From NCBI RefSeq assembly GCF_044324875.1, contig NZ_CP172185.1: a stretch of 64,000 bases of DNA; one strand, 5' to 3'. Shown here in pieces: positions 1 to 39,253 of the stretch. Both the position numbers and the translations under genes were made by a program. Source of the DNA: Escherichia coli (lineage in GTDB: Bacteria > Pseudomonadota > Gammaproteobacteria > Enterobacterales > Enterobacteriaceae). Every line of letters begins with the position of its first letter. The stretch's first letter is position 1. The notes under the pieces were generated by a model. The model was given only the letters and a program-made list of their open reading frames with translations. It searched no databases and was not told where the DNA came from.

Positions 1-804
1 GCCGACAAATCCACGTTGCTCAAGAGTGCTCTGCCAACCAGGAATCGGTTTATTCACTACACCCTGCCCACGCTCCTCACGCCATTCGCGCATATCCGTA
101 ATGTCGATGAGCGCACCGTCAGTCACGGCCTGCACGGTTTCACGCTGGCTTCCGGCACGGCGATGCATACAGGTGGTGATCTGCAAAGGACCGGCCGAAA
201 AATGGTGCTCGGCAAACAGCATTTCGCCAGCGTCATTAGTCAGTAGCGTACCGCCATCCAGAGAGGCTTTGCCGCCCGACAACCACAGCGCGGTATCCAC
301 CACATGCAGATAATCATCCAGCAACGTGAAATAAAGATCGTGTGGCCCGACGCTATTGCTACGATGTTTATCCATTCTTAGCGAGGCTGCGGTGGCGAGT
401 TGCGTTTTTAACTCACCGTAGAGTGGTGCGAAACGACGGTTAAAACCGACCATCAACGTCAGTTTTTTCCGCGCCGCAAGTTCCACCAGCCGTTCAGCAT
501 CGCGCAGATTTTCTGCCAGCGGTTTATCGACACAGACATGTACCCCCGCATTGAGTAACGTACTGACCACGTCAAAGTGGCTGGCGGTGCTGGAATGCAC
601 AAAAACCGCATCGCAACTGGCGGCAAGGCTGGATAACGAATCGGCATAAGGAATGCGCCAGCTTTCACAAATTGGCAGGGCTTTCGCGCGCGTAGGCGAC
701 CAGGCTCCTTGTAACATCCAGTCAGACGCTGCCGCCAGCACCGGTAACCACGCTTTTTGCGCAATGCCGCCTAATCCCACTACGCCGATACGTAATTTTT
801 TCAC
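1..804 (-). CDS. yceM: Gfo/Idh/MocA-family oxidoreductase YceM (MviM), 5'-proximal part only; gene continues beyond window start
   Basis: Reverse-strand reading from a GTG at 802-804 gives VKKLRIGVVGLGGIAQKAW..., open to position 1; absent from ORF track because no stop lies in the window; synteny with yceH/rimJ. Confidence 0.8.
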   Translation of the reverse strand, partial: MKKLRIGVVGLGGIAQKAWLPVLAAASDWMLQGAWSPTRAKALPICESWRIPYADSLSSLAASCDAVFVHSSTASHFDVVSTLLNAGVHVCVDKPLAENLRDAERLVELAARKKLTLMVGFNRRFAPLYGELKTQLATAASLRMDKHRSNSVGPHDLYFTLLDDYLHVVDTALWLSGGKASLDGGTLLTNDAGEMLFAEHHFSAGPLQITTCMHRRAGSQRETVQAVTDGALIDITDMREWREERGQGVVNKPIPGWQSTLEQRGFVG

Positions 805-805
805 T

Positions 806-2048
<1,243 letters not shown>

Positions 2049-2283
2049 TCTATACCTACTCCTTCCCGTAACGTCTTTAATACGCTGTAAGTATTACTAT
2101 ACCTGCGCAACCAGACCCTGTGAAAAGTCCAGAATGCCATTTTCTGCATTATTCACATATTTGATAAAAACTCTCTATCAAAGCGACGTTTTGATAAAAA
2201 AATATTGTCCCCGAAGTGATGGGAAAAGTCTTAGCGGCAATGCAGAATAGAAAGTGCTCATCTTTTATTTCCCGGGAGGGGAA

Positions 2284-3492
2284 ATGTCCCGCGTGTCGCA
2301 GGCGAGGAACCTGGGTAAATATTTCCTGCTCATCGATAATATGCTGGTCGTGCTGGGGTTCTTTGTTGTCTTCCCGCTGATCTCTATCCGCTTCGTTGAT
2401 CAAATGGGCTGGGCCGCCGTCATGGTCGGTATTGCCCTCGGCCTACGCCAGTTTATTCAGCAAGGTCTGGGTATTTTCGGCGGAGCAATTGCCGACCGCT
2501 TTGGTGCCAAACCGATGATTGTTACCGGTATGCTGATGCGTGCCGCCGGATTCGCCACAATGGGTATCGCCCACGAACCGTGGCTACTGTGGTTTTCATG
2601 CCTGCTTTCGGGACTCGGCGGCACGTTGTTTGATCCGCCGCGTTCGGCGCTGGTGGTGAAATTAATCCGTCCACAGCAGCGTGGTCGTTTTTTCTCGCTG
2701 TTGATGATGCAGGACAGTGCCGGTGCGGTCATTGGCGCATTGTTGGGGAGCTGGCTGTTGCAATACGACTTTCGCCTGGTCTGCGCCACAGGGGCAGTTT
2801 TGTTTGTGCTGTGTGCAGCGTTCAATGCGTGGTTGTTACCGGCATGGAAACTCTCCACCGTACGCACGCCCGTTCGCGAAGGCATGACCCGCGTGATGCG
2901 CGACAAGCGTTTTGTCACCTATGTCCTGACGCTGGCGGGTTACTACATGCTGGCTGTACAAGTGATGCTGATGCTGCCAATTATGGTCAACGACGTGGCG
3001 GGCGCGCCCTCTGCCGTTAAATGGATGTATGCCATTGAAGCGTGTCTGTCGTTAACGTTGCTCTATCCTATCGCCCGCTGGAGTGAAAAGCATTTTCGTC
3101 TGGAACATCGGTTGATGGCTGGGCTGTTGATAATGTCATTAAGCATGATGCCAGTGGGCATGGTCAGCGGCCTGCAACAACTTTTCACCCTGATTTGTCT
3201 GTTTTATATCGGGTCGATCATTGCCGAGCCTGCGCGTGAAACCTTAAGTGCTTCGCTGGCAGACGCAAGAGCTCGCGGCAGCTATATGGGGTTTAGCCGT
3301 CTGGGTCTGGCGATTGGCGGCGCTATTGGTTATATCGGTGGCGGCTGGCTGTTTGACCTGGGCAAATCGGCGCACCAGCCAGAGCTTCCGTGGATGATGC
3401 TGGGCATTATTGGCATCTTCACTTTCCTTGCGCTGGGTTGGCAGTTTAGCCAGAAACGCGCCGCGCGTCGTTTGCTTGAACGCGACGCCTGA
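2284..3492 (+). CDS. mdtH: MFS multidrug efflux transporter MdtH
   Basis: ORF 2254-3492; ATG at 2284 gives [27 protein letters not shown]..., 12-TM MFS pattern. Confidence 0.9.
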
Positions 3493-3555
3493 TTTGATAC
3501 TCCCCCCTGACTCCTCCATACTGAAAGTGAACTGACAGCCAAATGGAGGAGTCAC

Positions 3556-4203
3556 GTGAAGCTATACATTTACGATCACTGCCCTTACTGCCTCAAAGCC
3601 CGCATGATTTTCGGCCTGAAAAATATCCCCGTCGAATTACATGTTCTGCTCAACGACGACGCAGAAACACCCACCCGGATGGTCGGTCAAAAACAGGTTC
3701 CCATTCTGCAAAAAGATGACAGCCGCTATATGCCAGAAAGCATGGACATCGTTCACTATGTCGATAAACTCGACGGCAAACCGTTACTGACCGGCAAACG
3801 TTCCCCTGCCATTGAAGAGTGGCTGCGCAAGGTCAATGGCTACGCCAACAAACTGCTGTTGCCGCGTTTTGCCAAATCGGCATTTGATGAGTTTTCTACT
3901 CCCGCCGCGCGCAAATATTTCGTCGACAAGAAAGAGGCCAGCGCGGGTAATTTTGCCGACCTGCTGGCCCACTCTGACGGTCTGATTAAGAATATCAGCG
4001 ATGATTTACGTGCGCTGGACAAACTGATCGTCAAACCGAACGCCGTGAATGGCGAACTTTCGGAAGATGATATTCAGCTATTTCCGCTCCTGCGTAATCT
4101 GACGCTGGTAGCCGGAATCAACTGGCCAAGCCGCGTTGCTGATTACCGCGATAATATGGCGAAACAGACACAAATCAATTTGTTATCATCAATGGCGATT
4201 TAA
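3556..4203 (+). CDS. grxB: glutaredoxin 2
   Basis: 215-aa ORF with CPYC active site (MKLYIYDHCPYCLKAR...); GTG start preceded by GGAGGA. Confidence 0.92.
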   Translation: MKLYIYDHCPYCLKARMIFGLKNIPVELHVLLNDDAETPTRMVGQKQVPILQKDDSRYMPESMDIVHYVDKLDGKPLLTGKRSPAIEEWLRKVNGYANKLLLPRFAKSAFDEFSTPAARKYFVDKKEASAGNFADLLAHSDGLIKNISDDLRALDKLIVKPNAVNGELSEDDIQLFPLLRNLTLVAGINWPSRVADYRDNMAKQTQINLLSSMAI

Positions 4204-4336
4204 TCCTGACCCGCCGCGGCAGCCTGTATTCGCGGGTTGCCGCCGTTTTCAGTTTTTTCTGCTGGCGCGTTTATCGCTGGTGACACATGCTGCGTTGTGT
4301 CAGGATATTGACGCAGATTTCATGTCGAGGACTACC

Positions 4337-4897
4337 ATGAACAAGTTTTTATTTGCCGCTGCATTGATCGTCAGTGGCCTGCTCGTTGGCTGTAATCAAC
4401 TCACCCAATACACCATCACCGAACAAGAAATTAACCAGTCGCTTGCGAAACATAATAATTTCTCAAAAGATATCGGTTTACCCGGCGTGGCTGACGCCCA
4501 TATTGTTCTGACAAACCTGACCAGCCAAATTGGTCGCGAAGAGCCGAATAAGGTTACCCTAACCGGAGACGCCAATCTGGACATGAACTCCCTGTTCGGT
4601 AGCCAGAAAGCGACCATGAAACTGAAGCTGAAAGCGCTGCCCGTGTTTGATAAAGAAAAAGGTGCGATCTTCCTGAAAGAGATGGAAGTGGTCGATGCGA
4701 CGGTACAACCGGAAAAAATGCAAACGGTGATGCAAACGTTGCTCCCCTATTTGAACCAGGCATTACGCAATTACTTTAACCAGCAACCAGCTTACGTCCT
4801 GCGCGAAGATGGCAGCCAGGGCGAAGCAATGGCGAAGAAACTGGCGAAAGGCATTGAAGTGAAGCCAGGCGAAATTGTCATTCCGTTTACTGATTAA
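4337..4897 (+). CDS. yceB: lipoprotein YceB (DUF1439)
   Basis: Internal ATG of ORF 4136-4897 gives MNKFLFAAALIVSGLLVGC lipobox signal peptide; 186 aa. Confidence 0.9.
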   Translation: MNKFLFAAALIVSGLLVGCNQLTQYTITEQEINQSLAKHNNFSKDIGLPGVADAHIVLTNLTSQIGREEPNKVTLTGDANLDMNSLFGSQKATMKLKLKALPVFDKEKGAIFLKEMEVVDATVQPEKMQTVMQTLLPYLNQALRNYFNQQPAYVLREDGSQGEAMAKKLAKGIEVKPGEIVIPFTD

Positions 4898-4902
4898 TCA
4901 CG

Positions 4903-4928
4903 AGGGCGCATTCGCGCCCTTTATTTTT
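4903..4928 (+). terminator. rho-independent terminator downstream of yceB
   Basis: GC stem agggcgc/gcgccct with 4-nt loop followed by T-run ttatttttcg. Confidence 0.6.
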
Positions 4929-4935
4929 CGTGCAA

Positions 4936-4951
4936 AGGAAAACGTTTCCGC
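4936..4951. promoter_or_regulatory. candidate PurR operator in pyrC control region
   Basis: Palindrome aggaaaacgtttccgc resembles the PurR box (ACGCAAACGTTTGCGT-type); pyrC is a known PurR target. Confidence 0.5.
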
Positions 4952-5002
4952 TTATCCTTTGTGTCCGGCAAAAACATCCCTTCAGCCGGAGCATAGAGAT
5001 TA

Positions 5003-6049
5003 ATGACTGCACCATCCCAGGTATTAAAGATCCGCCGCCCAGACGACTGGCACCTTCACCTCCGCGATGGCGACATGTTAAAAACTGTCGTGCCGTATAC
5101 CAGCGAAATTTATGGACGGGCTATCGTAATGCCCAATCTGGCTCCGCCCGTGACCACCGTTGAGGCTGCCGTGGCTTATCGCCAGCGTATTCTTGACGCC
5201 GTACCTGCCGGGCACGATTTCAGCCCGCTGATGACCTGTTATTTGACAGATTCACTAGACCCTAATGAGCTTGAGCGTGGATTTAACGAAGGCGTGTTCA
5301 CCGCTGCCAAACTTTACCCGGCAAACGCAACCACTAACTCCAGTCACGGCGTGACGTCAGTTGACGCAATCATGCCGGTACTTGAGCGCATGGAAAAAAT
5401 CGGTATGCCGTTACTGGTGCATGGTGAAGTGACACATGCAGATATCGACATTTTTGATCGTGAAGCGCGCTTTATTGAAAGCGTGATGGAACCGCTGCGC
5501 CAGCGCCTGACTGCGCTGAAAGTCGTTTTTGAGCACATCACCACCAAAGATGCTGCCGACTATGTCCGTAACGGAAATGAACGGCTGGCTGCCACCATCA
5601 CTCCGCAGCATCTGATGTTTAACCGCAACCATATGCTGGTTGGTGGCGTGCGTCCACACCTGTATTGTCTACCCATCCTCAAACGCAATATTCACCAACA
5701 GGCACTGCGTGAACTGGTCGCCAGCGGTTTTAATCGCGTATTCCTCGGTACGGATTCTGCGCCGCATGCACGTCATCGCAAAGAGAGCAGCTGCGGCTGC
5801 GCGGGCTGCTTCAACGCCCCCACCGCGCTGGGCAGTTACGCTACCGTCTTTGAAGAGATGAATGCTCTGCAGCACTTTGAAGCATTCTGTTCTGTAAACG
5901 GCCCGCAGTTCTATGGCTTGCCGGTCAACGACACATTCATCGAACTGGTCCGCGAAGAGCAACAGGTTGCTGAAAGCATCGCATTGACTGATGACACACT
6001 GGTGCCATTCCTCGCCGGGGAAACGGTACGCTGGTCCGTTAAACAATAA
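5003..6049 (+). CDS. pyrC: dihydroorotase
   Basis: 348-aa [30 protein letters not shown]... canonical class II dihydroorotase. Confidence 0.95.
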
Positions 6050-6085
6050 AAATCCTAGCTTCCTGTTGTCATTAGGTTATTTTAC

Positions 6086-6101
6086 CTGTATAAATAACCA
6101 G
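6086..6101. promoter_or_regulatory. LexA (SOS) box upstream of dinI
   Basis: CTGTATAAATAACCAG fits CTG-N10-CAG consensus, 22 bp upstream of the dinI start. Confidence 0.75.
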
Positions 6102-6122
6102 TATATTCAACAGGGGGCTATT

Positions 6123-6368
6123 ATGCGAATTGAAGTCACCATAGCGAAAACTTCTCCATTGCCAGCTGGGGCTATTGACGCCCTGGCTGGCGAACTTTCC
6201 CGCCGTATTCAGTATGCGTTTCCTGATAATGAAGGCCACGTATCGGTACGTTATGCCGCAGCGAATAATTTATCGGTTATTGGCGCAACAAAAGAAGATA
6301 AACAGCGCATTAGCGAAATTCTCCAGGAAACGTGGGAAAGCGCCGATGACTGGTTTGTCAGCGAATAA
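6123..6368 (+). CDS. dinI: DNA damage-inducible protein I
   Basis: Internal ATG of ORF 5991-6368 gives 81-aa MRIEVTIAKTSPLPAGAIDALAGELSRR... Confidence 0.92.
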   Translation: MRIEVTIAKTSPLPAGAIDALAGELSRRIQYAFPDNEGHVSVRYAAANNLSVIGATKEDKQRISEILQETWESADDWFVSE

Positions 6369-6389
6369 TATGCAGTGATTTTTGTTTTT

Positions 6390-6416
6390 GCCGGGTCGCC
6401 CCGGCTTTTTTATTTT
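6390..6416 (+). terminator. rho-independent terminator downstream of dinI
   Basis: gccggg-tcgc-cccggc stem-loop followed by ttttttatttt. Confidence 0.6.
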
Positions 6417-6657
6417 ACTTACAAATTTTGAGTACAAAATTTCTACACTTCCTCAAAATAATTGCACAATATGCTAAAAAAATATGAATGACATGCTGTT
6501 TTATTGTTCATATAAATCTTAAAAGCAGAAATTTATCTGTTCCCCCCTTTAAAAATTCGGTGAATACCCTTACTTATTGGTATACTGAAGTTGCTTCAGA
6601 TAAAAACGCATTGAACCTCGAATAACGTTGTCTAGTAACACGAATTAGGGGGCCATG

Positions 6658-6912
6658 ATGGAAAAAAATAATGAAGTCATTCAGACTCATCCGCTCGTAG
6701 GGTGGGACATCAGCACCGTTGATAGCTATGATGCGCTGATGTTGCGTTTGCACTACCAGACCCCAAATAAGTCCGAGCAGGAAGGGACTGAAGTTGGTCA
6801 GACGCTCTGGTTAACCACTGATGTTGCCAGACAATTTATTTCGATATTAGAAGCAGGAATCGCCAAAATTGAATCCGGTGATTTCCCGGTAAACGAGTAT
6901 CGGCGTCATTAA
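6658..6912 (+). CDS. bssS: biofilm regulator BssS
   Basis: ORF 6655-6912, MEKNNEVIQTHPLVGWDISTVDSYDALMLRLHYQ... Confidence 0.9.
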   Translation: MEKNNEVIQTHPLVGWDISTVDSYDALMLRLHYQTPNKSEQEGTEVGQTLWLTTDVARQFISILEAGIAKIESGDFPVNEYRRH

Positions 6913-7026
6913 CATGACATGACCATCCACCCAAAAGGCACCTCACCGGTGCCTTTACCATTTCTGGGTTGTATATCTGCATTCAGTTAATTACTCTGCT
7001 TAAACCATGAGAGCAGAGAGAAAAAA

Positions 7027-8145
7027 ATGAAATACGATCTCATCATTATTGGCAGCGGTTCCGTAGGCGCTGCCGCCGGGTATTATGCAACCCGTGCCGG
7101 TTTAAACGTGCTAATGACCGACGCCCATATGCCACCACATCAACACGGCAGCCACCACGGCGATACGCGATTAATTCGCCATGCTTATGGTGAAGGCGAA
7201 AAGTATGTCCCGCTGGTTCTCCGCGCGCAAACGCTGTGGGATGAACTCTCCCGCCACAACGAAGAAGATCCCATTTTTGTACGCTCTGGCGTCATTAACC
7301 TTGGCCCGGCTGATTCCACATTTCTCGCCAACGTCGCCCACAGCGCCGAACAATGGCAACTCAACGTTGAAAAGCTCGATGCGCAAGGGATTATGGCCCG
7401 CTGGCCGGAAATACGCGTCCCGGACAACTACATCGGCTTATTTGAGACTGATTCCGGTTTTTTGCGCAGCGAACTGGCGATTAAAACCTGGATCCAACTG
7501 GCGAAGGAAGCGGGCTGTGCGCAGCTGTTCAACTGCCCGGTCACCGCAATTCGTCATGACGATGATGGCGTAACTATTGAAACGGCTGACGGTGATTATC
7601 AGGCGAAAAAAGCGATTGTCTGCGCGGGAACATGGGTAAAAGACCTGCTCCCGGAGCTGCCTGTCCAGCCCGTACGCAAAGTATTTGCCTGGTATCAGGC
7701 CGATGGTCGCTATAGCGTGAAGAATAAATTCCCGGCGTTTACCGGTGAACTGCCCAATGGCGATCAATATTATGGTTTTCCGGCAGAAAACGACGCGTTG
7801 AAGATTGGCAAACATAACGGAGGCCAGGTTATCCATTCAGCGGATGAACGTGTTCCGTTTGCGGAAGTGGTCAGCGATGGTTCGGAAGCCTTCCCGTTCT
7901 TGCGCAATGTATTGCCGGGTATCGGTTGCTGCCTGTACGGCGCTGCCTGCACCTATGATAATTCGCCTGACGAAGATTTTATTATCGATACCCTACCCGA
8001 CCACGATAATACACTGCTCATTACCGGCCTGAGTGGGCACGGTTTTAAATTTGCGTCAGTTTTAGGGGAAATAGCTGCCGATTTTGCGCAAGACAAAAAA
8101 AGCGATTTTGATTTGACGCCATTCAGGCTTTCCCGCTTCCAATAA
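7027..8145 (+). CDS. solA: N-methyl-L-tryptophan oxidase
   Basis: 372-aa ORF with N-terminal FAD-binding GSGSVG motif ([20 protein letters not shown]...). Confidence 0.93.
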
Positions 8146-8165
8146 TCATCATTACGGCCTCCAGA

Positions 8166-8306
8166 ATGAGGCCGTTTTTACAGGAGTATTTAATGCGTCG
8201 GCTGTTGCACTATCTCATCAATAATATTCGCGAGCATCTGATGCTTTATCTTTTTCTCTGGGGATTGTTGGCAATTATGGATCTGATCTATGTGTTTTAT
8301 TTTTAG
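8166..8306 (+). CDS. yceO: small protein YceO
   Basis: 46-codon [49 protein letters not shown] read directly from sequence (below ORF-track size cutoff). Confidence 0.7.
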
Positions 8307-30180: not shown

Positions 30181-31023
30181 CTATACTGCCAGCATGTCAG
30201 GATAGTGTCTGACGATAATATCATTCAGTCTGTCAACCAGTTCCGGTTTCCTGAACGTGATATGCGCGGAGCCTTTCCTGAAGTATCTGATGCTGAACAT
30301 CTCATCCTCATAGCATGCTTCACCCTGAACGGACCGGATGTGCTCATCCAGACGAATGAGGATATTGTCCCGGTCAGTGGGTATGGGTTTACCGCTGAAC
30401 AGATACAGTATCCTTTCCAGGTCGGCAAGCCGCCCGGCCTGCGGACCATGGTTCAGACCAAATCCCCACCAGTCCCATTTCACCAGGTTGTTGAGGATAA
30501 TCTTACTGCCGAATTTACAGGGTGACCCGCTGTTGTGCGTCCGGCTCAGTCCTCTGAAGAGGTTGATGACGCCCCGTTCAGCCATTTCATCCCTGTTACG
30601 GTGCAGTTGTTCAGACGTACTCAGGATATTCGCTTCGCTGATTTCCGGAAAATTATCCTCCTCCAGTGAACGGTACCATTCATCACGCGCCTGTGCATCC
30701 ATCAGACTCAGCATCCCGGAGCGTTGCATCAGGTCACGCCAGATTTCACGGTCAAGGTTCCGGGTGATGGCTTTCATTGCGGTTTCCGGTTTTTCCATCA
30801 GCCAGCAGCCACAGCGAAAATCCTGTTTCACGGCCCAGTCCCGGGCCGTTTTACCTCCGATGCTTTCTGTCATTACTGAGATTTCTGCCAGTTGCCGGAT
30901 AAGCCTTTCGGTTTGTTGCAGTGCTTCATTCCGTACCGTCACAACGTGCCGGATACTGGTTGAGCAGATAACGTCCGTATGTCCGTTAAGCGTTTCCGGA
31001 CGGGAGACTGTGATATCAGACAT
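30181..31023 (-). CDS. conserved island hypothetical protein, 280 aa (possibly DUF4942-type; family not confirmed)
   Basis: Long ORF MSDITVSRPETLNGHTDVICSTSIRHVVTVRNEALQQTERLIRQ... at the tRNA-proximal edge of the island. Confidence 0.55.
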   Translation of the reverse strand: MSDITVSRPETLNGHTDVICSTSIRHVVTVRNEALQQTERLIRQLAEISVMTESIGGKTARDWAVKQDFRCGCWLMEKPETAMKAITRNLDREIWRDLMQRSGMLSLMDAQARDEWYRSLEEDNFPEISEANILSTSEQLHRNRDEMAERGVINLFRGLSRTHNSGSPCKFGSKIILNNLVKWDWWGFGLNHGPQAGRLADLERILYLFSGKPIPTDRDNILIRLDEHIRSVQGEACYEDEMFSIRYFRKGSAHITFRKPELVDRLNDIIVRHYPDMLAV

Positions 31024-31119
31024 AACCGATATTCCTTTTTGCAGATAAATGAAAACGCCAGCCGTATTCGGACTGGCGTCAGTGGAATGAATCGTGGTGA
31101 GTGAGATGATGAGTGAGAC

Positions 31120-31317
31120 TCACAGGTTCTGGTGCTGAAGCTGCAGCTGGCGCAGGGTGCGGATATCCTCCCTGGCCTGTTCGATACAGGGCAACAGTGC
31201 TGCCGAATCCGTTTTATCCTCATCGTTGTCGAAGATAATGCAGGAGCCGCAGTCGATATTGTCCTGCAGCCACGCAATCAGAATATCCGGTGCTGTTTCT
31301 GTGGTTAATGATTTCAT
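31120..31317 (-). CDS. small hypothetical protein (65 aa)
   Basis: C-terminal in-frame part (MKSLTTETAPDILIAWLQDNIDCGSCIIFDNDEDKTD...) of ORF 31120-31704, directly downstream of the yeeW-like gene; no clear SD. Confidence 0.3.
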   Translation of the reverse strand: MKSLTTETAPDILIAWLQDNIDCGSCIIFDNDEDKTDSAALLPCIEQAREDIRTLRQLQLQHQNL

Positions 31318-31336
31318 ACGGTGTCTTTTGTCCCGG

Positions 31337-31825
31337 TTACCAGTCGAAAGTGGGAAAACCCGGCAGACATTCAGCGCCGGCATCCAGATGAATGAGACTG
31401 ACGCCATAACGCCGGATGAGAGTGACAACCAGACGACGAAACGTTTTTGACAGACCCAGGCGTTTAAGCCGCAGAGCCGGGTACGACCACGCATCAGTAC
31501 GTAACAGATATCCGCTGCCTGTAAAATGAATCCATTCTGATTCGCCGTTGTCATTCGTCTGATGCGACAGCGAGTACAGCCAGGCATTGTCCTGCTCCGT
31601 GATATGTGCGGTACTGCAGCGTATGCCGGTAAGGGCCGCAAATGGTGGCATGCAGTCTGCTGAGGTCCGGTCAGATTCATCAGCAACACGAAGGGAACAG
31701 CCATTATCGCAGACCACGTTAATCAGTTCAGCGAGATTAACACCATCGACGTCAGCGACAATGCGCCCCATGTTCAGTGCCTGTACGTTAACGCTGTCGG
31801 CTTCCAGTGTCAGGGACAGTTTCAT
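31337..31825 (-). CDS. YeeW-like protein (162 aa)
   Basis: [31 protein letters not shown]...; start overlaps cbtA stop (ATGA); position equals yeeW in CP4-44-type modules. Confidence 0.5.
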
Positions 31826-32199
31826 GGTTTCACCTCACAGTGTTTACCCAGGGTGATGTTGTTCACCATTCTGTAGTGGCTGCGGGTCATCAGGCCGGTC
31901 GCCCGGCGGGCCCGGAGAATATCAATGCTGCTGATTAACTGCGATGAAGCTCCTGCGCTGAATCCCGGCTGGTCGGTACGCACCAGCGCGTATTTTTCCA
32001 CAAGAAAGTTCACCGCATCACACAGTGAAATACCCGCCTCAATATGCTGCTCAATCACACGTTCATCGGCGAACGGTGTGTCATTCAGCGTGAGGCCGTA
32101 GTGCTGGTCCAGCAGCCGGGTGAGCAGTGTCTGCCAGATTTCAACCGGAGACGGGCAGCGCGATGTTGCCCGTACGTGTGTGTCGGGGAATGTTTTCAT
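31822..32199 (-). CDS. cbtA: CbtA/YeeV-family toxin (cytoskeleton-binding toxin)
   Basis: ORF 31822-32325; internal start [56 protein letters not shown]... closely resembles YeeV. Confidence 0.85.
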
Positions 32200-32257
32200 C
32201 TTAAGTACTCTGTAACAGGTGATGATAAAGAAGTGCTGTCCGGGGTTATGCGGTGGT

Positions 32258-32623
32258 TCAGGGTGTTGCCGGTGTCGGATAAATGGCGATATACACGTAA
32301 CCACAACTGCCGAGGGTGTCGGCATCGCAGGTCAGCCCTTTCGCATACAGTGTCACGGTATGCTGATGGCGGGGACTGAGTTCACCGCTGGTGAGCATGA
32401 GTTCCAGCTGTTTCATCAGCAGCGGAAAGGCCTGGTCCAGGTGGTACGCATCTGCGTCGCTGAACCGGCCTCTGATACCGGCGCGGTCTGCAAGGTAATG
32501 CAGGCGGTTACCCTCCTGCACCAGACGGGCACCGAAACAGGGCGTCACGGTGCAGGGCAGCCCCCACCAGGGGCGGTCGCTGTTGTCGTCAGGATGCGTT
32601 GTCCCGGTGAGTGTGTCTGACAT
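32258..32623 (-). CDS. cbeA: CbeA/YeeU-family antitoxin
   Basis: 121-aa [53 protein letters not shown]... closely resembles YeeU. Confidence 0.85.
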
Positions 32624-32673
32624 GATAAAGTCCTCACTGATAATCGGTTAAGAATGGTTTTAACAATGACGGG

Positions 32674-33318
32674 TCAGCCGGCGCGCAGACCGGCTTCGGT
32701 GAAGGTGTATCCGTTGATGAGAAGGGCCTCATCCACGGCGTCGTCTGAGGTCAGCCAGTCGTACTCGTTTTCCAGTTGACTGTATAACCAGAAGGCAAGG
32801 TCCCGCAGGGCGTCACAGACAACGGTTTCCGCGCTGGCTGTCATTGCCTGTCCGGTCGGACTGTCCCGGGTGACGGTGATATCCATGCTGTACGGATGGC
32901 AGTAGTGTCCCCGGTGGCGGATTTCAGCCTGAAGCTGCCGGAAGTTACGCTTCTGCACCGCCTGCAGGGCATCCGCGATACGATGAAGCTCACGGTCCTG
33001 CGGGGCATATTCCCTGATTTTCCGGGGTGCCGCTGGCTGCCAGCGCCAGCGTCCTTCAAAACAGGCTCCGTCCCCCTGGCTGCAGAATCCGCTGAACCAG
33101 ATGCACGGCTCTTCCATAAACCTGCCGTTGCTGAGCCGGATAACACGCTGGCGGAGGGCAATCCCGACAATCTCACAGACCGTCCTGAAGTCCTCATACA
33201 CGTTTTCATACCAGTTGCTGTCAGCATGATGCTGACGGTACCATTCACGGGCCTTCTCCCGTGCTGTGGCGGAAAGTTCATCCGGCGTATACACGGTGGT
33301 GATGATAATTCTGCTCAT
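32674..33318 (-). CDS. hypothetical protein (about 214 aa) between yeeT-like and cbeA
   Basis: ORF 32674-33330; ATG at 33318 (MSRIIITTVYTPDELSATAREKAREWYRQHH...) with GGAG 6 nt upstream; protein-like composition, overlapping alternative-frame ORFs look non-coding. Confidence 0.55.
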   Translation of the reverse strand: MSRIIITTVYTPDELSATAREKAREWYRQHHADSNWYENVYEDFRTVCEIVGIALRQRVIRLSNGRFMEEPCIWFSGFCSQGDGACFEGRWRWQPAAPRKIREYAPQDRELHRIADALQAVQKRNFRQLQAEIRHRGHYCHPYSMDITVTRDSPTGQAMTASAETVVCDALRDLAFWLYSQLENEYDWLTSDDAVDEALLINGYTFTEAGLRAG

Positions 33319-33334
33319 CCGCATCTCCACTGAC

Positions 33335-33556
33335 TCAGTTCAGGGTGACGCTCATCAGCCGGACATACGGGCCAAAACTGTCCTTCCGGCGTTCGGCAAA
33401 CACGGCAAGCACACCGGGGATATCCTGCACTTCACGACCGGTATACGCTTCAGCACTGCCGTGCCAGCGGTATTTACCGGTACAGAACGGAAAAAGACGG
33501 GATGACGGATACTGACGGTGAACGCGCATGGCTTCACCACGGGTGATGATTTTCAT
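33335..33556 (-). CDS. yeeT: YeeT-like protein (DUF987)
   Basis: 73-aa ORF MKIITRGEAMRVHRQYPSSRLFPFCTGKYRWHGSAEAYTGREVQDIPGVLAVFAERRKD... Confidence 0.8.
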   Translation of the reverse strand: MKIITRGEAMRVHRQYPSSRLFPFCTGKYRWHGSAEAYTGREVQDIPGVLAVFAERRKDSFGPYVRLMSVTLN

Positions 33557-33645
33557 GAGAACAGTCCTCCTGAATGTGAAAGTGAGAAACAGCTGAGAAA
33601 GAGAAACTGAAGTGACAATATGAAGGTGGCTGTGACGGTGACGGA

Positions 33646-34122
33646 TTAAAGCAGACCGTGTTCCGCAAAGGAGAACACCCGGCTGCCACCGACTATCAAA
33701 TGGTCCGGTACCCGGATATCCACCAGGGCCAGTGCCTGTACCAGACGTTCAGTGATAAGGCGGTCTGCCTTACCGGGTGTGACCTCACCGGACGGATGAT
33801 TGTGCGCCAGCACCACGGCAGCGGCATTGTGGTACAGGGCGCGTTTAACCACCTCCCGGGGATGCACTTCCGTGCGGTTGATGGTGCCGGTGAAGAGGGT
33901 TTCACCGGCAATCAGCTGATTCTGGTTGTTCAGGTACAGCACCCGGAACTCTTCCCGCTCCAGTCCCGCCATGTGCAGAATCAGCCATTCCCGTGCCGCA
34001 TGCGTGGAGGTGAAGGCCACGCCGGGTTCATGAAGATGGCGGTCCAGGGTTTTCAGGGCCCGCTGAATGAGGCTGCGCTCGCCGGGCGTCATCGCGCCGG
34101 GCAGAAAGGAAATCTGTTGCAT
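33646..34122 (-). CDS. RadC-like JAB-domain protein (YeeS/YkfG/YfjY family)
   Basis: ORF 33646-34164 with JAMM-like motif HNHPSGEVTPGKADRLITERL. Confidence 0.85.
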   Translation of the reverse strand: MQQISFLPGAMTPGERSLIQRALKTLDRHLHEPGVAFTSTHAAREWLILHMAGLEREEFRVLYLNNQNQLIAGETLFTGTINRTEVHPREVVKRALYHNAAAVVLAHNHPSGEVTPGKADRLITERLVQALALVDIRVPDHLIVGGSRVFSFAEHGLL

Positions 34123-34133
34123 AACCTCACTCC

Positions 34134-34607
34134 TCAGTCGATGATGCGCATAATGGCGCTGCATTCCGGATGCTGCAGGGCGTAATCCCGCAGCCGGTAA
34201 TAATGGACCGTCATGGCATAATGCTCCGTACGGCAGGCGTGATGACTGTAGGCCATCAGGCAGGCGGCAATGCCGGCGGCTTCAGGGCTCATTTCCGCGC
34301 GGTTGCCGTTCATGGTGTTAAACAGTGCCCATGTTTCGTCATCATCGTCACCCGGTTCGGGAGCCATAAATGCGCCGCCGTTGTTCAGGGTGTACATATT
34401 CCAGATACCCCCACTGTAGTCTTCACACAGACGGTCCATCCAGCCGAAGATTCGGGGCTCAAGGGTCACCCACTGCGGAATGAGGCCAAAGTGCTGCGGC
34501 CAGAAGCTGATGCGCTGTTCGTCAGGCACTGGGCTGGCAACCAGCTGAGGTGGATTATTCCCGGATGCAGTGGTTGCGGAAACAGAGTCATGCGAAACCG
34601 TTTTCAT
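34134..34607 (-). CDS. antirestriction protein (YfjX/YafX, KlcA/ArdB-like family)
   Basis: ORF 34134-34709; family-conserved part starts at ATG 34607 (MKTVSHDSVSATTASG...); tail ...HHACRTEHYAMTVHYYRLRDYALQHPECSAIMRIID; upstream ORF extension runs into IS21 DNA. Confidence 0.8.
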   Translation of the reverse strand: MKTVSHDSVSATTASGNNPPQLVASPVPDEQRISFWPQHFGLIPQWVTLEPRIFGWMDRLCEDYSGGIWNMYTLNNGGAFMAPEPGDDDDETWALFNTMNGNRAEMSPEAAGIAACLMAYSHHACRTEHYAMTVHYYRLRDYALQHPECSAIMRIID

Positions 34608-34825
34608 AAGTGAAATCCTTAAGTGCAAAATGGCATCTGAATCGATCGCAGTTTGGCATTCGAATCGATCATGATTTGGCATCCATCTCCGATCACAGTT
34701 TGGCATCACAATCGATCACGATTTGGCATGCTTCCGATCATTGATTGGCATCCTGCCAGTCACTCCGGGAATTAACTCTTTTCACCACAGTCTCCATTGC
34801 CGTGTTTAAACCAGTGGAGACGTCA

Positions 34826-36391
34826 ATGTCCAGAAAGAGAAAATCCAGGAGCACTATGGAAACCTGTTTTAAGATCCTTCAGCTCAAGTTCGACAAGAAG
34901 CTGACTAACCGTTGTATCGGACTGACGTTACACATCAGCGCCTCAACCGTTTTTGAGGTTCTTGCCCGCTTCAAAGCCTCTTCTCTGTCATGGCCATTAC
35001 CTGCTGATATATCCCATGACACGCTGGAGAAACTCATTTTTCCGCCCAAAGACACCTTTGCATCAGAGCTTGTAATGCCTGACATGTTGTACTTCGATAC
35101 GGAAATGAGAAAACCAGGTGTGACGCGGCAACTGTTGTGGATGGAATACAAGGCACAGGCGGGTAACAAAGCGATGGGATACTCGCACTTCTGCCGTTGC
35201 TACCGGGAGTGGAAAAAAACGCGACGTCTCTCCATGCGCCAGGAGCATCGTGCCGGCGAAAAGCTTTTTATCGACTTCTGTGGTCCTACGGTTCCTGTTA
35301 TTAATCCGGACACCGGTGAGATACGCCGCGTGGCAATCTTCGTGGCCGTAATGGGGGCGTCCAACTATACCTACGTTGAAGCGTGCGAAGGTCAGGACAT
35401 GATGTCATGGTTAAATGCCCACAGCCGTTGCCTGACCTTCCTGGGCGGCGTACCGAAGCTGCTCATCCCCGATAACCTCAGAAGCGCAGTGAAAAAGGCC
35501 GATCGATATGAGCCTGTCATCAACGACAGTTATCAGGCACTGGCTGAGCACTATGGCACGGTTATCATCCCGGCCCGACCACGCAAACCTAAAGATAAAC
35601 CAAAAGCAGAAAACGGCGTCCTCATCGTTGAACGATGGCTTCTTGCCCGCATCCGTAATGAAACCTTCCACACGCTCAGGGCGCTGAATGCGCGCCTTAG
35701 GGAGTTACTGACAGACATGAATAACCGGCCAATGAAGGGGTACGGCAATCAAACCCGTGCAGAACGCTTCCGCATACTGGATGCGCCAGCACTCTCTCCG
35801 CTGCCTCTGGCACCTTATGAATACACGGAATACAAAGCTGTGAAGGTTGGCCCTGACTACCACGTTGAATATGCCCGTCACTGGTACTCCGTTCCACACG
35901 AACTGGTCGGTCAGCGTCTGTCACTGAAGGCGGGGCAGTCGGTGGTACAGCTCTGGCACAAGGGGCAGTGTGTGGCGCAACATCCGCGCAGCACACATGA
36001 ATATAAACACACAACCAATCCGCTTCACATGCCAGAGCGCCACCGGCAGCACGGGACATGGACACCGGAACGCCTGATCGAGCAGGGAAAACGTACGGGC
36101 CCGTCCACAGGCCGGGTGGTTGAATCCATGCTGAAGGCAAAACCCCATCCGGAACTGGCTTATCGTGCAGTTCTGGGGCTGCTGGCACTTCAGAAAAAAT
36201 ACGGCCCGGAACGGCTGGAAAAGGCCTGTTACGTTGCCCTGCACTATAACGCCCCTGACAGACGCTTTATCGACAATCTGCTGCGTCACCATCGGGAGAA
36301 CCTGGAGCTTCCATTATCCCGCCAGGGCGAACAACATCCGGCATATGCTTCAGAGCATGAAAACCTGCGTGGTCCGGGCTACTACCACTGA
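34826..36391 (+). CDS. istA: IS21-family transposase IstA
   Basis: Internal ATG of ORF 34745-36391 (MSRKRKSRSTMETCFKILQLKFDKK...) preceded by GGAGA; HTH plus DDE integrase core. Confidence 0.85.
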   Translation: MSRKRKSRSTMETCFKILQLKFDKKLTNRCIGLTLHISASTVFEVLARFKASSLSWPLPADISHDTLEKLIFPPKDTFASELVMPDMLYFDTEMRKPGVTRQLLWMEYKAQAGNKAMGYSHFCRCYREWKKTRRLSMRQEHRAGEKLFIDFCGPTVPVINPDTGEIRRVAIFVAVMGASNYTYVEACEGQDMMSWLNAHSRCLTFLGGVPKLLIPDNLRSAVKKADRYEPVINDSYQALAEHYGTVIIPARPRKPKDKPKAENGVLIVERWLLARIRNETFHTLRALNARLRELLTDMNNRPMKGYGNQTRAERFRILDAPALSPLPLAPYEYTEYKAVKVGPDYHVEYARHWYSVPHELVGQRLSLKAGQSVVQLWHKGQCVAQHPRSTHEYKHTTNPLHMPERHRQHGTWTPERLIEQGKRTGPSTGRVVESMLKAKPHPELAYRAVLGLLALQKKYGPERLEKACYVALHYNAPDRRFIDNLLRHHRENLELPLSRQGEQHPAYASEHENLRGPGYYH

Positions 36392-36407
36392 CAGAAGGAA
36401 CAACAGT

Positions 36408-37163
36408 ATGAGTGATAACCTGTTAAACAAACTGACCCAACTGAAACTCCCGGCGATGGCCGGGAGCCTGATACGGCAGCGGGAAACGCCTCAGACCTAC
36501 GACGAACTGTCGTTCGAGGAAAGGCTGACGCTGCTGGTTGATGACGAGCTTCTGAGCAGGGAAAACAGCCGTGTGGCACGGTTGAGAAAAAATGCCGGCC
36601 TGAAATACCAGGCAACACCGGAAGGGCTGCGCTATCCGGCCTCAAGAGGTCTGCGGGCTGAACAGATGAGAGAACTGCTGAACGGCCACTACATAACCCA
36701 CAGGAAAAACCTGCTGATAACCGGTCCGACAGGATGTGGCAAGAGCTGGATAGCCAATGCGCTGGGCGAACAGGCATGTCGACAGAAACACAGCGTCCGG
36801 TACTGTAGAACCGGGCGATTACTGGAACAACTGGCTCAGGGACGTGTTGATGGCAGCTGGCTGAAATATCTGAAACAGTTGCAAAAAATACAGGTTCTAA
36901 TCCTGGACGATCTGGGGCTGGAACAGTTAAGTAACGCCCAGTGTAATGACCTTCTGGAGCTCATAGAGGATCGTTACGGACAAAGCAGCACGATAGTGGT
37001 AAGCCAGTTCCCGGTAGATAAATGGCATGGTCTGATGGAGAACCCAACAACAGCAGATGCCATCCTGGACAGACTGGTACATAACTCACACCGAGTGGTC
37101 CTTCAGGGAGAGTCACTGAGGAAAAATCCCCCGGTAGTGGAAAGCAGCGAAAAAACGCGTTAA
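36408..37163 (+). CDS. istB: IS21-family helper ATPase IstB
   Basis: Internal ATG of ORF 36165-37163 (MSDNLLNKLTQLKLPAMAG...); Walker A GPTGCGKS. Confidence 0.85.
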   Translation: MSDNLLNKLTQLKLPAMAGSLIRQRETPQTYDELSFEERLTLLVDDELLSRENSRVARLRKNAGLKYQATPEGLRYPASRGLRAEQMRELLNGHYITHRKNLLITGPTGCGKSWIANALGEQACRQKHSVRYCRTGRLLEQLAQGRVDGSWLKYLKQLQKIQVLILDDLGLEQLSNAQCNDLLELIEDRYGQSSTIVVSQFPVDKWHGLMENPTTADAILDRLVHNSHRVVLQGESLRKNPPVVESSEKTR

Positions 37164-37262
37164 AAAGCGGTAGAAAAAGTTAAGTTCCCGGTTGATCGAA
37201 TGGATGCGAATCGCTGATCGGACTTCGATGCCAATCCGTGATCGAATAGAGCGGAATACGCA

Positions 37263-37330
37263 CTTAAGTGAATAAGTGAACAAGTGAATTAAGGAAATAA
37301 GTGAATGAATAAGTGAATAAGAGAGAAAAG
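37263..37330. repeat. tandem array of 8-bp AAGTGAAT-like units
   Basis: cttaagtgaataagtgaacaagtgaattaaggaaataagtgaatgaataagtgaataag; one more unit (aagtgaaat) lies on the other side of the IS21 element at 34609-34617. Confidence 0.7.
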
Positions 37331-37356
37331 ACAGGGCACTGACAGCGTCGCGTTAA

Positions 37357-38175
37357 TCAGCGCAGGCTCTCCAGCAGCGTTTCCGTCATCACCCACAATG
37401 CGCGGTTGAGCTTAATGTCGGTGTCAATGCTGTGAATGGCCCGGGTGTGGATACGTTTTCCTTTTGCACTGCGCCCCTGAAGACCACCCTTGAGCATATT
37501 CTCCTGGATGGTCTGATAAGCACTCCACAGGTCCTTACCGTAATCCTCCCGGCGTCGTGGCGTCAGAATGTCAGCGGTGGTGACGGGCTGATGTTCGTCA
37601 CCATAACGGTAAGTCAGGGCGGCCTGTGCCAGCGCTTGGCGAGCCGGTGGTGGTAAAATCAGCGACTGCATGGCATCACGCTTCTCCTCAATCCGGTCAA
37701 AAACCCCCACCACTTCGTAAGCCCCTTCGATGACCCTGTCCACCACGTTTCCCCGGTGTGGCACACGCACCTCTCCGAGAGACTGACCGCAGACGCACCC
37801 GTTCTGACACACGAACCGGAAGTAACCCGGCAGCATCTGGTAGCTGGAGGTACCGTCATGGGAGTTGAGCAGAATGATTTCCGGGACATGCTGCCCGTTT
37901 ATCTCCCCGTCACGGCGCAGACGCAGCATGTGCTTTGTGTATCCCCGACGTCCCGGGTCCCGCACGCGGGTCTGGCAGGCAAAGAAGGGCTGAAAGCCTT
38001 CCCGCTGCAGGCTTTCCAGCACGGTAATGGTGGGGATGTATGTATAGTTCCGGCTCCGGGAGGTGTGCTTATCTTCCCCGAAAATCCCGGGCACATGGTG
38101 CATCAGTTCTTCATGTGTCAGCGGACGGTCACGGCGTATCTGGTTCGCATAACCAAAACGACTGGCTAATCGCAT
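37357..38175 (-). CDS. DUF932/UPF0380 family protein (YfjQ/YafZ-like)
   Basis: 272-aa ORF MRLASRFGYANQIRRDRPLTHEELMHHVPGIFGEDKHTSRSRNYTYIPTITVLESLQREGFQPFF... Confidence 0.7.
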   Translation of the reverse strand: MRLASRFGYANQIRRDRPLTHEELMHHVPGIFGEDKHTSRSRNYTYIPTITVLESLQREGFQPFFACQTRVRDPGRRGYTKHMLRLRRDGEINGQHVPEIILLNSHDGTSSYQMLPGYFRFVCQNGCVCGQSLGEVRVPHRGNVVDRVIEGAYEVVGVFDRIEEKRDAMQSLILPPPARQALAQAALTYRYGDEHQPVTTADILTPRRREDYGKDLWSAYQTIQENMLKGGLQGRSAKGKRIHTRAIHSIDTDIKLNRALWVMTETLLESLR

Positions 38176-38699
38176 ACTTTGCTCCTTATCAGTGGTTAAG
38201 ACTGACTGACGTAATCAATGAAAAAGCCGCGTCTCCCGGAGAAGACGCGGCCTGATGGATGAAATGAATGAGGGTTTACCGAAGTCCTTCAGCATTGAGG
38301 TGAAGCCGCCGGAAATGTGTTCCCGGGTCATCTTCGATAAATACATTGCGGTAAGCTGTTATGGCAGAAACCGCCTGCACGTGTGAGAAAGGTCTTCGCT
38401 TAAGACGTACTCTGTGTGATCCGGTATTTCTGGTTTCTCCTGATTAATAGCCTCTGCCACAAAGTGTGGAAGAGGCTGAATCATGGTATTTACTTCTTTC
38501 ATCATGGTGGTATTCCGGTGTATTAACCGGGATCTGATTCCGGAAAATAAGGAATAAACGTAAAGGAGCAGAATGCTCGTTATGCCAGACACGCAGGGGG
38601 TAATGCCTCTTCCGGGTGGTTAACCATATTGCCGGGATGTGATGCTTCATATTCCATAACAGAGCGTTGCCTGATGATACTGACTACCAGTGGTTTGAT

Positions 38700-38927
38700 T
38701 CACATATTGGTCGCTGCCCGTTGCTGTACGCCGGCGGCGAAAATGATCTCCAGAGCATTCTGATCGATAACACGGGCCAGATTCGCGTTCAGATTTTCAG
38801 TTTCATTTTCGGTCAGCAGGAAACTGACGGCAAGCCACGTCACCTGCTCCTGAATCATGGCAGGAATTTTGATGCGCTCCTCTTCAGCCAGAGTACCGGC
38901 AATTTTTCCTGATACCACTGCAATCAT
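38700..38927 (-). CDS. hypothetical small protein (75 aa)
   Basis: ORF MIAVVSGKIAGTLAEEERIKIPAMIQEQ...; start overlaps stop of upstream 76-aa ORF by 4 bp. Confidence 0.3.
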   Translation of the reverse strand: MIAVVSGKIAGTLAEEERIKIPAMIQEQVTWLAVSFLLTENETENLNANLARVIDQNALEIIFAAGVQQRAATNM

Positions 38928-39154
38928 TCCTCCCGGAACGCCGCCCGCCAGCGAATATGAAATAACCGGGGTATGCGTTCAGTGATACAGCCAGCCAGTA
39001 AAGCCGGACCGGACAGACACAGCAATATGAGTCCTGCCAGCACAGACGCTGTGCTGGTTAATGCTCTGAACAAAAAGCGAAGAATGGCAAATCCTGCGAT
39101 AAGCAGGATCAGCACGCCGACTATCTGTAACATAGTCCCCCTGATAAATATCAT
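38924..39154 (-). CDS. hypothetical small membrane protein (76 aa)
   Basis: ORF with two hydrophobic segments (LQIVGVLILLIAGFAILRFLF, ASVLAGLILLCLSGPALLAGC) immediately downstream of flu. Confidence 0.3.
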   Translation of the reverse strand: MIFIRGTMLQIVGVLILLIAGFAILRFLFRALTSTASVLAGLILLCLSGPALLAGCITERIPRLFHIRWRAAFREE

Positions 39155-39253
39155 GTTATTGTTAATGCCAGCGAATGTGGCGTTGAATATCCGTTGCGCC
39201 GGTCCGGGTCCCGATCATGATGACCGGGACCACAAAGAGGCAATGCAGAATTG

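Follow-up and report, generated by a model that had tools for sequence, protein, structure and literature searches.

In Escherichia coli K-12, the five-gene lfgABCDE operon begins with yfjX (lfgA) and has its promoter region upstream of this gene (PMC10846083). Stress induces expression of the operon, and inserting kan into lfgA has a polar effect on lfgB (PMC10846083). Structures of the related antirestriction proteins ArdB of E. coli CFT073 and KlcA are represented by PDB entries 2WJ9 and 2KMG, respectively. The mobile element considered here belongs to the IS21 family, whose members IS21 and IS5376 encode a DDE transposase, IstA, and an AAA+ helper, IstB. Members of this family generate target-site duplications of 4–8 bp.

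The DNA analysed here, referred to as the window, is a stretch of 64,000 nucleotides from E. coli which includes a CP4-like island integrated at tRNA-Ser (serX). Within this island, an ISSso4-like IS21 element lies between an ArdB/KlcA-type antirestriction gene (ardB) and its upstream neighbour, which encodes a DUF932 protein (Table 1). All of the parts are of known kinds, namely the element, the ArdB/KlcA gene, the CP4-like module, and a simple insertion accompanied by a duplication, making the feature an ordinary textbook IS insertion. The sequence shows that the IstA/IstB element made a simple insertion into the 104-bp DUF932-antirestriction spacer, with staggered cleavage duplicating CTTAAG. 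The left copy of the duplication rebuilds the TAAGGA motif of the Shine-Dalgarno (SD) sequence and the coding sequence is intact. The native upstream DNA, made up of the DUF932 gene, an array of 8-bp repeats, and any promoter that these have, now stands 2.6 kb away, and a transcript arriving from there would need to run through the entire element in the direction antisense to istB and istA. As a result, ardB and the closely spaced radC-like gene, and possibly genes beyond, are most likely transcriptionally uncoupled or strongly down-regulated through a polar effect. A simple insertion that preserves the SD sequence, with uncoupling as its predicted consequence, is considered, with good confidence, the probable account of this locus.

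Table 1. Positions of the genes, insertion sequence, and regulatory features at the insertion locus, numbered from the first nucleotide of the window.
Feature	Position	Strand	Basis or remark
RadC/JAB-family gene	33646..34122	-	TIGR00608, 146.3 bits (cut-off 133.85); annotated radC in the IS-free locus L001
ArdB-type antirestriction gene, 157 aa, intact	34134..34607	-	PF03230, 2WJ9, KlcA 2KMG
Artefactual 5' extension of the antirestriction reading frame (GTG at 34709)	34608..34709	-	runs via the duplication into the IS left end
Shine-Dalgarno TAAGGA	34616..34621	-	8-nt spacer to ATG; intact after insertion
Target-site duplication CTTAAG, 6 bp, left copy	34618..34623	.	sequence; overlaps the SD of the antirestriction gene
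ISSso4-like IS21-family insertion sequence, intact, TG...CA termini	34624..37262	+	2639 bp
IS left end, terminal sequence and five ~23-bp direct repeats (consensus ~GATCAcaGTTTGGCATC)	34624..34752	+	repeat search
istA transposase, first ATG 34826, 521 aa	34826..36391	+	NF033546, Pfam, and PDB matches
istB helper AAA+ ATPase, 251 aa	36408..37163	+	NF038214 and PDB matches
IS right end with inverted copies of the left-end repeat motif	37193..37262	+	inverted repeats I2, I6-I9, I11
Target-site duplication CTTAAG, right copy	37263..37268	.	sequence
Imperfect 8-bp tandem array, TAAGTGAA on the plus strand, ATTCACTT on the gene strand	37265..37321	.	TRF: period 8, 7.5 copies
DUF932 gene, upstream neighbour	37357..38175	-	PGAP annotation of the orthologous locus, ORF list

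An earlier note on this DNA had assigned the element to the IS21 family from the letters alone, and profile and structure searches agree. IstA scores 284.6 bits against NF033546 'IS21 family transposase' (cut-off 160), contains the Pfam domains rve and Mu-transpos_C_2, and matches the IS5376 IstA structures 8Q4D and 8B4H (E ~ 1e-13). IstB scores 257.8 bits against NF038214 (cut-off 200) and matches the IS5376 IstB structures 8Q3W and 5BQ5 at E = 4e-24. The genes are consecutive, istA followed by istB after a 16-nt gap, which is the gene order of the IS21 family. In identical copies of istA, PGAP places the start 10 codons later, corresponding to 34856. The element extends from TGCAAAATGG to GGAATACGCA, with the TG...CA ends and imperfect terminal inverted repeats that characterise the family. 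The five ~23-bp direct repeats of the left end span 34641–34752, with TRF reporting a tandem repeat at 34631–34729 (period 23, 4.3 copies), and the repeat search paired right-end positions 37200–37250 with 34642–34752 of the left end as inverted repeats. Judged from the sequence, these multiple terminal repeats at both ends form an architecture typical of the IS21 family, and those of the left end are presumed to be IstA-binding sites.

A further observation concerns the left junction, where a weak hybrid promoter-like arrangement on the plus strand (34603–34631) reads into istA. Its first part, TTCATA, lies in the flank and overlaps the start codon of ardB, and a spacer of 17 nt separates it from CAAAAT at IS positions 3–8. 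This arrangement agrees with 8/12 consensus positions, which is under the scan threshold, and is purely a sequence observation.

The 2639-bp element (query 1–2639) is found as 100% identical full-length copies in many unrelated E. coli chromosomes and plasmids. The name ISSso4 is taken from the PGAP annotation of these identical copies, which carry the label 'IS21-like element ISSso4 family helper ATPase IstB'. Across the comparison set of 5426 complete E. coli genomes, near-full-length copies were detected in 225 (297 records), a single genome having as many as 23 of them. The recurrence of identical copies in unrelated surroundings, together with the empty site described below, reflects the mobility expected of an IS21-family element, and the sequence comparisons indicate a known, currently active IS. 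The same first and last bases are found in five other insertions (L002, L003, L004, L007, and L008), which fixes the boundaries of the window copy at 34624 and 37262, where the earlier note had placed them. Target duplications at these sites are GTTACG in L002, GATAC in L003, TTCTGCC in L004, and GGATAC in L007, and copies from metagenomes have duplications of 4–7 bp.

The fifth of these insertions has no target duplication. It is carried by the F-type plasmid pVTB074v-1 (NZ_CP178671; L008 3001–5639), where the IS lies between a 5'-truncated DUF932 gene and traC and abuts a rearrangement. The arrangement points to a deletion or inversion associated with the IS in the leading/transfer region of the plasmid. 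The 24-nt left terminus of the IS also has exact matches in genomes labelled Buttiauxella warmboldiae and Serratia marcescens and in two MAGs (L009–L012), hence the range of the element extends beyond E. coli. One of these MAGs is binned as Collinsella, which is probably a binning artefact. A stand-alone record of 2636 bp, NZ_JBXSPU010000008.1 from E. coli ESDR8, consists of the IS alone (query 1–2636, 100% identity) within an assembly described as 'complete'. This record is either a multicopy-repeat assembly artefact or a circular form of the IS.

The island module has the order DUF905, DUF932, antirestriction, RadC, DUF987, hypothetical protein, CbeA, and CbtA. Its antirestriction protein was identified by Pfam and PDB searches, matching PF03230 Antirestrict at E = 9e-37, 2WJ9 over residues 1–157 at E = 9e-93, and KlcA 2KMG at E = 9e-21. 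Neither this protein nor the DUF932 protein matched an NCBIfam family. On the strength of these matches the predicted product is an ArdB/KlcA-type antirestriction protein, and it is identical to WP_000860015.1 of the IS-free strain 135, which has the same annotated start. The radC-like gene starts 11 nt past the antirestriction stop codon and, given this short gap, the two genes are very probably co-transcribed. The distance from the DUF932 gene to the antirestriction gene is 104 bp in the IS-free island and 2.75 kb in the window. In the IS-free allele, this AT-rich spacer is an imperfect ATTCACTT array that continues through the SD sequence to the ATG. The IS landed in the proximal end of the array, which resumes at 34608–34623 on the other side of the element. 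The earlier note's statement that the gene is cut off from the upstream repeat array agrees with this, the array now lying across 2.6 kb of IS. The octamer array may serve as a promoter or UP-like element or bind a regulator, or it may have arisen by slippage. Strain AR_0085 has a cleaner array of six units, and other paralogues are without any array.

Several features of the surrounding island were observed in passing. A strong terminator-like hairpin on the minus strand (38224–38253), with 13 pairs that include 8 G-C and with a T-run after the stem, lies between the DUF905 gene and the start of the DUF932 gene, ~48 nt before the DUF932 ATG. It is kept in the IS-free strain and suggests a transcription-unit boundary just upstream of DUF932. 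Further along, an Ag43/Cah autotransporter gene (39254–42373, minus strand) has broken into two ORFs, an N-terminal one of 290 aa and a C-terminal one of 743 aa; its counterpart in the orthologous locus has an internal stop and carries a pseudogene annotation. Directly upstream of it is an IS66-family transposase (42413–43951; NF033517, 457 bits), and a match to IS102 RNA is located at 44845–45041. A 218-aa ORF (32674–33330, minus strand) between the DUF987 (yeeT-like) and cbeA-like antitoxin genes has no NCBIfam match. Strain 135 has it annotated as 'hypothetical', whereas in a paralogue the annotation is a frameshifted 'antitoxin of toxin-antitoxin stability system'.

From its position, ardB, probably together with radC, is most likely uncoupled from upstream transcription. 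The native promoter must lie upstream of the SD sequence and is therefore separated from the gene by the 2.6-kb IS, from which we infer the uncoupling. The earlier note described the gene as cut off from its promoter. This holds physically, with 2.6 kb now standing between the gene and all upstream DNA; no promoter was located in either allele, and the regulatory part of the claim is deduced from the arrangement. A sigma-70 scan returned no sites in 34000–38400 of the window and none in the IS-free locus, and a laxer scan (at least 8/12) of the 400 nt upstream of the ATG returned one poor site per allele, far from the gene. These scans are insensitive, as they also missed the promoter of istA, which must exist. 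By analogy, the kan insertion in K-12 lfgA would support a polar effect, with the qualification that the upstream region of this paralogue is unrelated.

The rival account that survives best is that the insertion is selectively and functionally neutral, the module having been silent or dispensable already and the IS having settled in tolerant AT-rich intergenic DNA. AT-rich island DNA can be subject to H-NS-type silencing, and ardB may already have been silent. The target region would suit this, with only 33% GC in the 100 bp around the insertion site and with CTTAAG fitting the weak preference of the IS for TA-containing targets. Decay is also visible elsewhere in the island, where Ag43 is split by an internal stop and has an IS66-family transposase beside it. 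Long-term decay is argued against by the intact state of ardB, radC, and the downstream ORFs, and by the identity of the ardB product in IS-free strains. Expression and stress induction of the paralogous K-12 operon also speak against it (PMC10846083). On balance neutrality is regarded as possible but doubtful, and transcriptional uncoupling is preferred.

It is also conceivable, although unlikely, that the insertion does not silence the gene at all. In such a case, ardB would be transcribed by read-through from the DUF932 side or from a weak outward promoter in the IS left end, and the protein would still be made. The unchanged SD sequence, spacer, and ATG would permit this, and intrinsic terminators are not in excess on the minus strand of the IS, where 6 terminator-like hairpins were counted against 4.4 +/- 2.5 expected from shuffled sequence. 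The insensitivity of the promoter scans, which found nothing anywhere in 34000–38400, even for istA, also counts in favour of this account. However, the IS left end has no outward-facing -35/-10 pair of at least 9/12, and none of 8/12 in the 120 nt nearest the ATG. For IS21-family elements inward and junction promoters are known, but we know of no outward left-end promoters. Rho-dependent termination would work against read-through, since an untranslated antisense RNA of 2.6 kb is one of its classical substrates. Transcriptional uncoupling hence remains the preferred consequence of the insertion.

A third account, in which the insertion destroys the ribosome-binding site (RBS) and leaves the gene translationally dead, is very improbable. 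Its appeal lies in the overlap of the duplication with the SD sequence, which the earlier note had described correctly, with four SD bases (TAAG), or three of those in AAGGA, falling inside CTTAAG. On the gene (minus) strand the start region reads CTTAAGGATTTCACTTATG, with the ATG at 34607–34605. The left copy of the duplication restores exactly this sequence, and identity to the empty site reaches 18 nt upstream of the ATG, leaving the initiation region from -18 unchanged; the sequence thereby refutes loss of the RBS. Because the left CTTAAG copy rebuilds TAAGGA with the same 8-nt spacer as in the empty site, the RBS is seen from the sequence to be adjoined by the insertion, not destroyed. 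The description of an element inserted on the RBS is therefore apt as to position and overlap but not if taken to mean disruption. TAAGGA corresponds to the 5' portion of the SD consensus. In an alignment (A1) of 7 allelic and paralogous upstream regions, AAGGA does not vary, although the regions are otherwise strongly diverged.

The same region bears on the annotation of the gene. The start at 34607, as given in the earlier note, agrees with the annotation of IS-free alleles, and the crystallised ArdB aligns to it from residue 1. The ORF list instead contains a 191-aa frame at 34134–34709 with a GTG start, of which 34624–34709 is IS sequence. In the IS-free allele, this frame is closed by an in-frame TAA 13 codons upstream of the ATG. 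Since the extension consists of IS sequence and the IS-free frame is closed, the 191-aa ORF is an artefact, as had been supposed, and the true gene has 157 aa and starts at 34607.

On the plus strand, the left junction (34600–34647) reads ...gttttCATaagtgaaatcCTTAAG in the flank and TGCAAAATGGCATCTGAATCGATC... in the IS (in a shorter reading, ...gttttCATaagtgaaatcCTTAAG and TGCAAAATGGCATC...). The right junction (37240–37281) reads ...GATCGAATAGAGCGGAATACGCA in the IS and CTTAAGtgaataagtgaac... in the flank (in a shorter reading, ...GCGGAATACGCA and CTTAAGtgaataagtg...). The duplication had been written as CTTAAG(TG). Re-inspection found CTTAAG at both flanks, and only one CTTAAG is present in the empty-site allele. 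The 8-bp version, CTTAAGTG, arises as the IS begins with TG and the target by coincidence also continues with TG. As the five other copies start with TGCAAAATGG, the left TG belongs to the IS and the right TG is a coincidental match in the target. The duplication is thus 6 bp, within the short range typical of the IS21 family.

In-silico excision, a check put forward in the earlier note, gave the predicted junction exactly. With 34624–37268 deleted, the resulting 305-bp query is 100% identical to 8 complete E. coli genomes and matches 3 further genomes at 88–98%. The same note had suggested the upstream regions of yfjX (lfgA) and yafX in K-12 as IS-free comparators. These proved uninformative, having unrelated leaders, no repeat array, and a different junction, and the identical IS-free alleles of other strains were used in their place. 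In the 8.3-kb IS-free locus of strain 135 (L001; NZ_CP080260), BLAST aligned positions 1–4120 with window 30506–34625 at 99.88% and positions 4113–8305 with window 37263–41455 at 99.98%. The two collinear blocks overlap by exactly the 8 bp CTTAAGTG. This locus adjoins the same tRNA-Ser, ghrA, ycdX, ycdY, ycdZ, and csgG as the window and, given these shared flanking genes, its sequence identifies it as the orthologous island at serX and a true empty site, not a paralogue.

A chance 6-mer match flanking the IS has p ~ 2e-4 and, taken with the collinear blocks sharing exactly 8 bp, the CTTAAG match is not a chance one. The last account, in which the CTTAAG match is a coincidence and homologous recombination or a larger rearrangement, not simple transposition, brought in the IS, has a negligible probability: the duplication-free plasmid copy abutting a rearrangement at L008 indicates that such events occur with this IS, but in the window both flanks are collinear with the orthologous empty site at 99.9%, the overlap is exactly the duplicated bases, and no second copy of the IS exists elsewhere in the 64 kb, so that the L001 alignment blocks refute it. 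Neither junction of the window insertion was found in one piece among the 5426 complete E. coli genomes. This absence, together with the 100% identity of the IS to other copies and its perfect duplication, means that the insertion is probably recent and strain-specific.

Insertions of this IS near the same boundary are not limited to the window. Chimeric junction queries in both orientations against the 5426 genomes located four further independent insertions near the DUF932/antirestriction boundary of paralogous islands, giving five clustered hits (window, L002, L003, L004, and L007). Measured from the antirestriction ATG in their respective loci, the five sites range from ~28 nt within the gene to 373 bp upstream, and when mapped on the IS-free sequence of the window they span ~230 bp. 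Of the four, one interrupts the antirestriction coding sequence after ~28 nt and one lies at the DUF932 3' end. The other two, which have the duplications GATAC and GGATAC, are oppositely oriented and share one position ~100 nt short of the DUF932 stop. This pair comes from unrelated strains (L003 3868–6506, NZ_CP087294; L007 3847–6485, NZ_CP053785) and is equivalent to window position ~37455. An apparent same-orientation bias among the junction matches was discarded as an artefact of joining same-strand pieces.

The same-site pair and the clustering may reflect a target preference or a tolerated-site effect. No strong target motif was found among the IS flanks; the target sequences show a weak preference for TA-containing hexamers, in that the final 7 nt of the flanks are 2.4- to 6-fold enriched for TTA, TAA, and ATAC, and both CTTAAG and GGATAC fit this preference. 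That the DUF932 3'/antirestriction 5' boundary of CP4-like islands is a recurrent target of the IS is put forward as an improbable, tentative suggestion. IS copies survive preferentially in dispensable island DNA, making the recurrence suggestive only. Of 58 independent IS flanks recovered from metagenomes and other genera (metagenome and genome contigs), none of the left flanks matched ArdB, DUF932, or RadC. A firm claim of a hot spot was rejected on this count, and as survival bias toward dispensable island DNA could explain the modest enrichment. If there is recurrence, IstB could be steering the IS to some local feature of the DNA, or selection could favour insertions that uncouple the antirestriction-RadC-toxin/antitoxin operon from upstream control.

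The analysis has little importance beyond annotation. The 191-aa ORF is wrong and should be replaced by the 157-aa gene starting at 34607, while the IS is to be seen as a recent, strain-specific arrival that has probably disconnected the ardB-radC module from its native upstream region. Any study of restriction evasion in the source strain, or of the part that its RadC/LfgB-like protease plays in stress, would need to consider this insertion first.

Compared with known systems, the element shares with IS21 and IS5376 the homologous IstA DDE transposase and IstB AAA+ helper, as well as repeated IstA-binding motifs at both ends. It differs in that its IstA is ~130 aa longer (511–521 vs. ~390–400 aa) and the element itself ~0.5 kb longer, and the sequence similarity is remote. 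The likeness to ISSso4 is closer, extending to the istA/istB pair, the length of 2639 bp, the TG...CA ends, the multiple terminal repeats, and variable target duplications of 4–7 bp. However, IstA of the window variant is labelled by PGAP merely 'IS21 family transposase', whereas the L004 copy, which is 96.4% identical to the window IS, bears the ISSso4 label on IstA too. Given this difference in labels, the window element may be an isoform or close relative of ISSso4 rather than ISSso4 itself.

The antirestriction protein is like ArdB of E. coli CFT073 and KlcA without notable difference, and the sole novelty relative to them is the IS left end 16 nt upstream of the ATG. The module as a whole resembles lfgABCDE (yfjX-yfjY-ypjJ-yfjZ-ypjF) of the K-12 CP4-57 island, with the same paralogous order of antirestriction protein, RadC/JAB protease, DUF987, antitoxin, and toxin. 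The upstream regions are unrelated, K-12 having a different leader that lacks the ATTCACTT array. The two insertions also differ in position, as the kan insertion in K-12 lies inside the first gene, lfgA, whereas the IS in the window lies upstream of the first gene.
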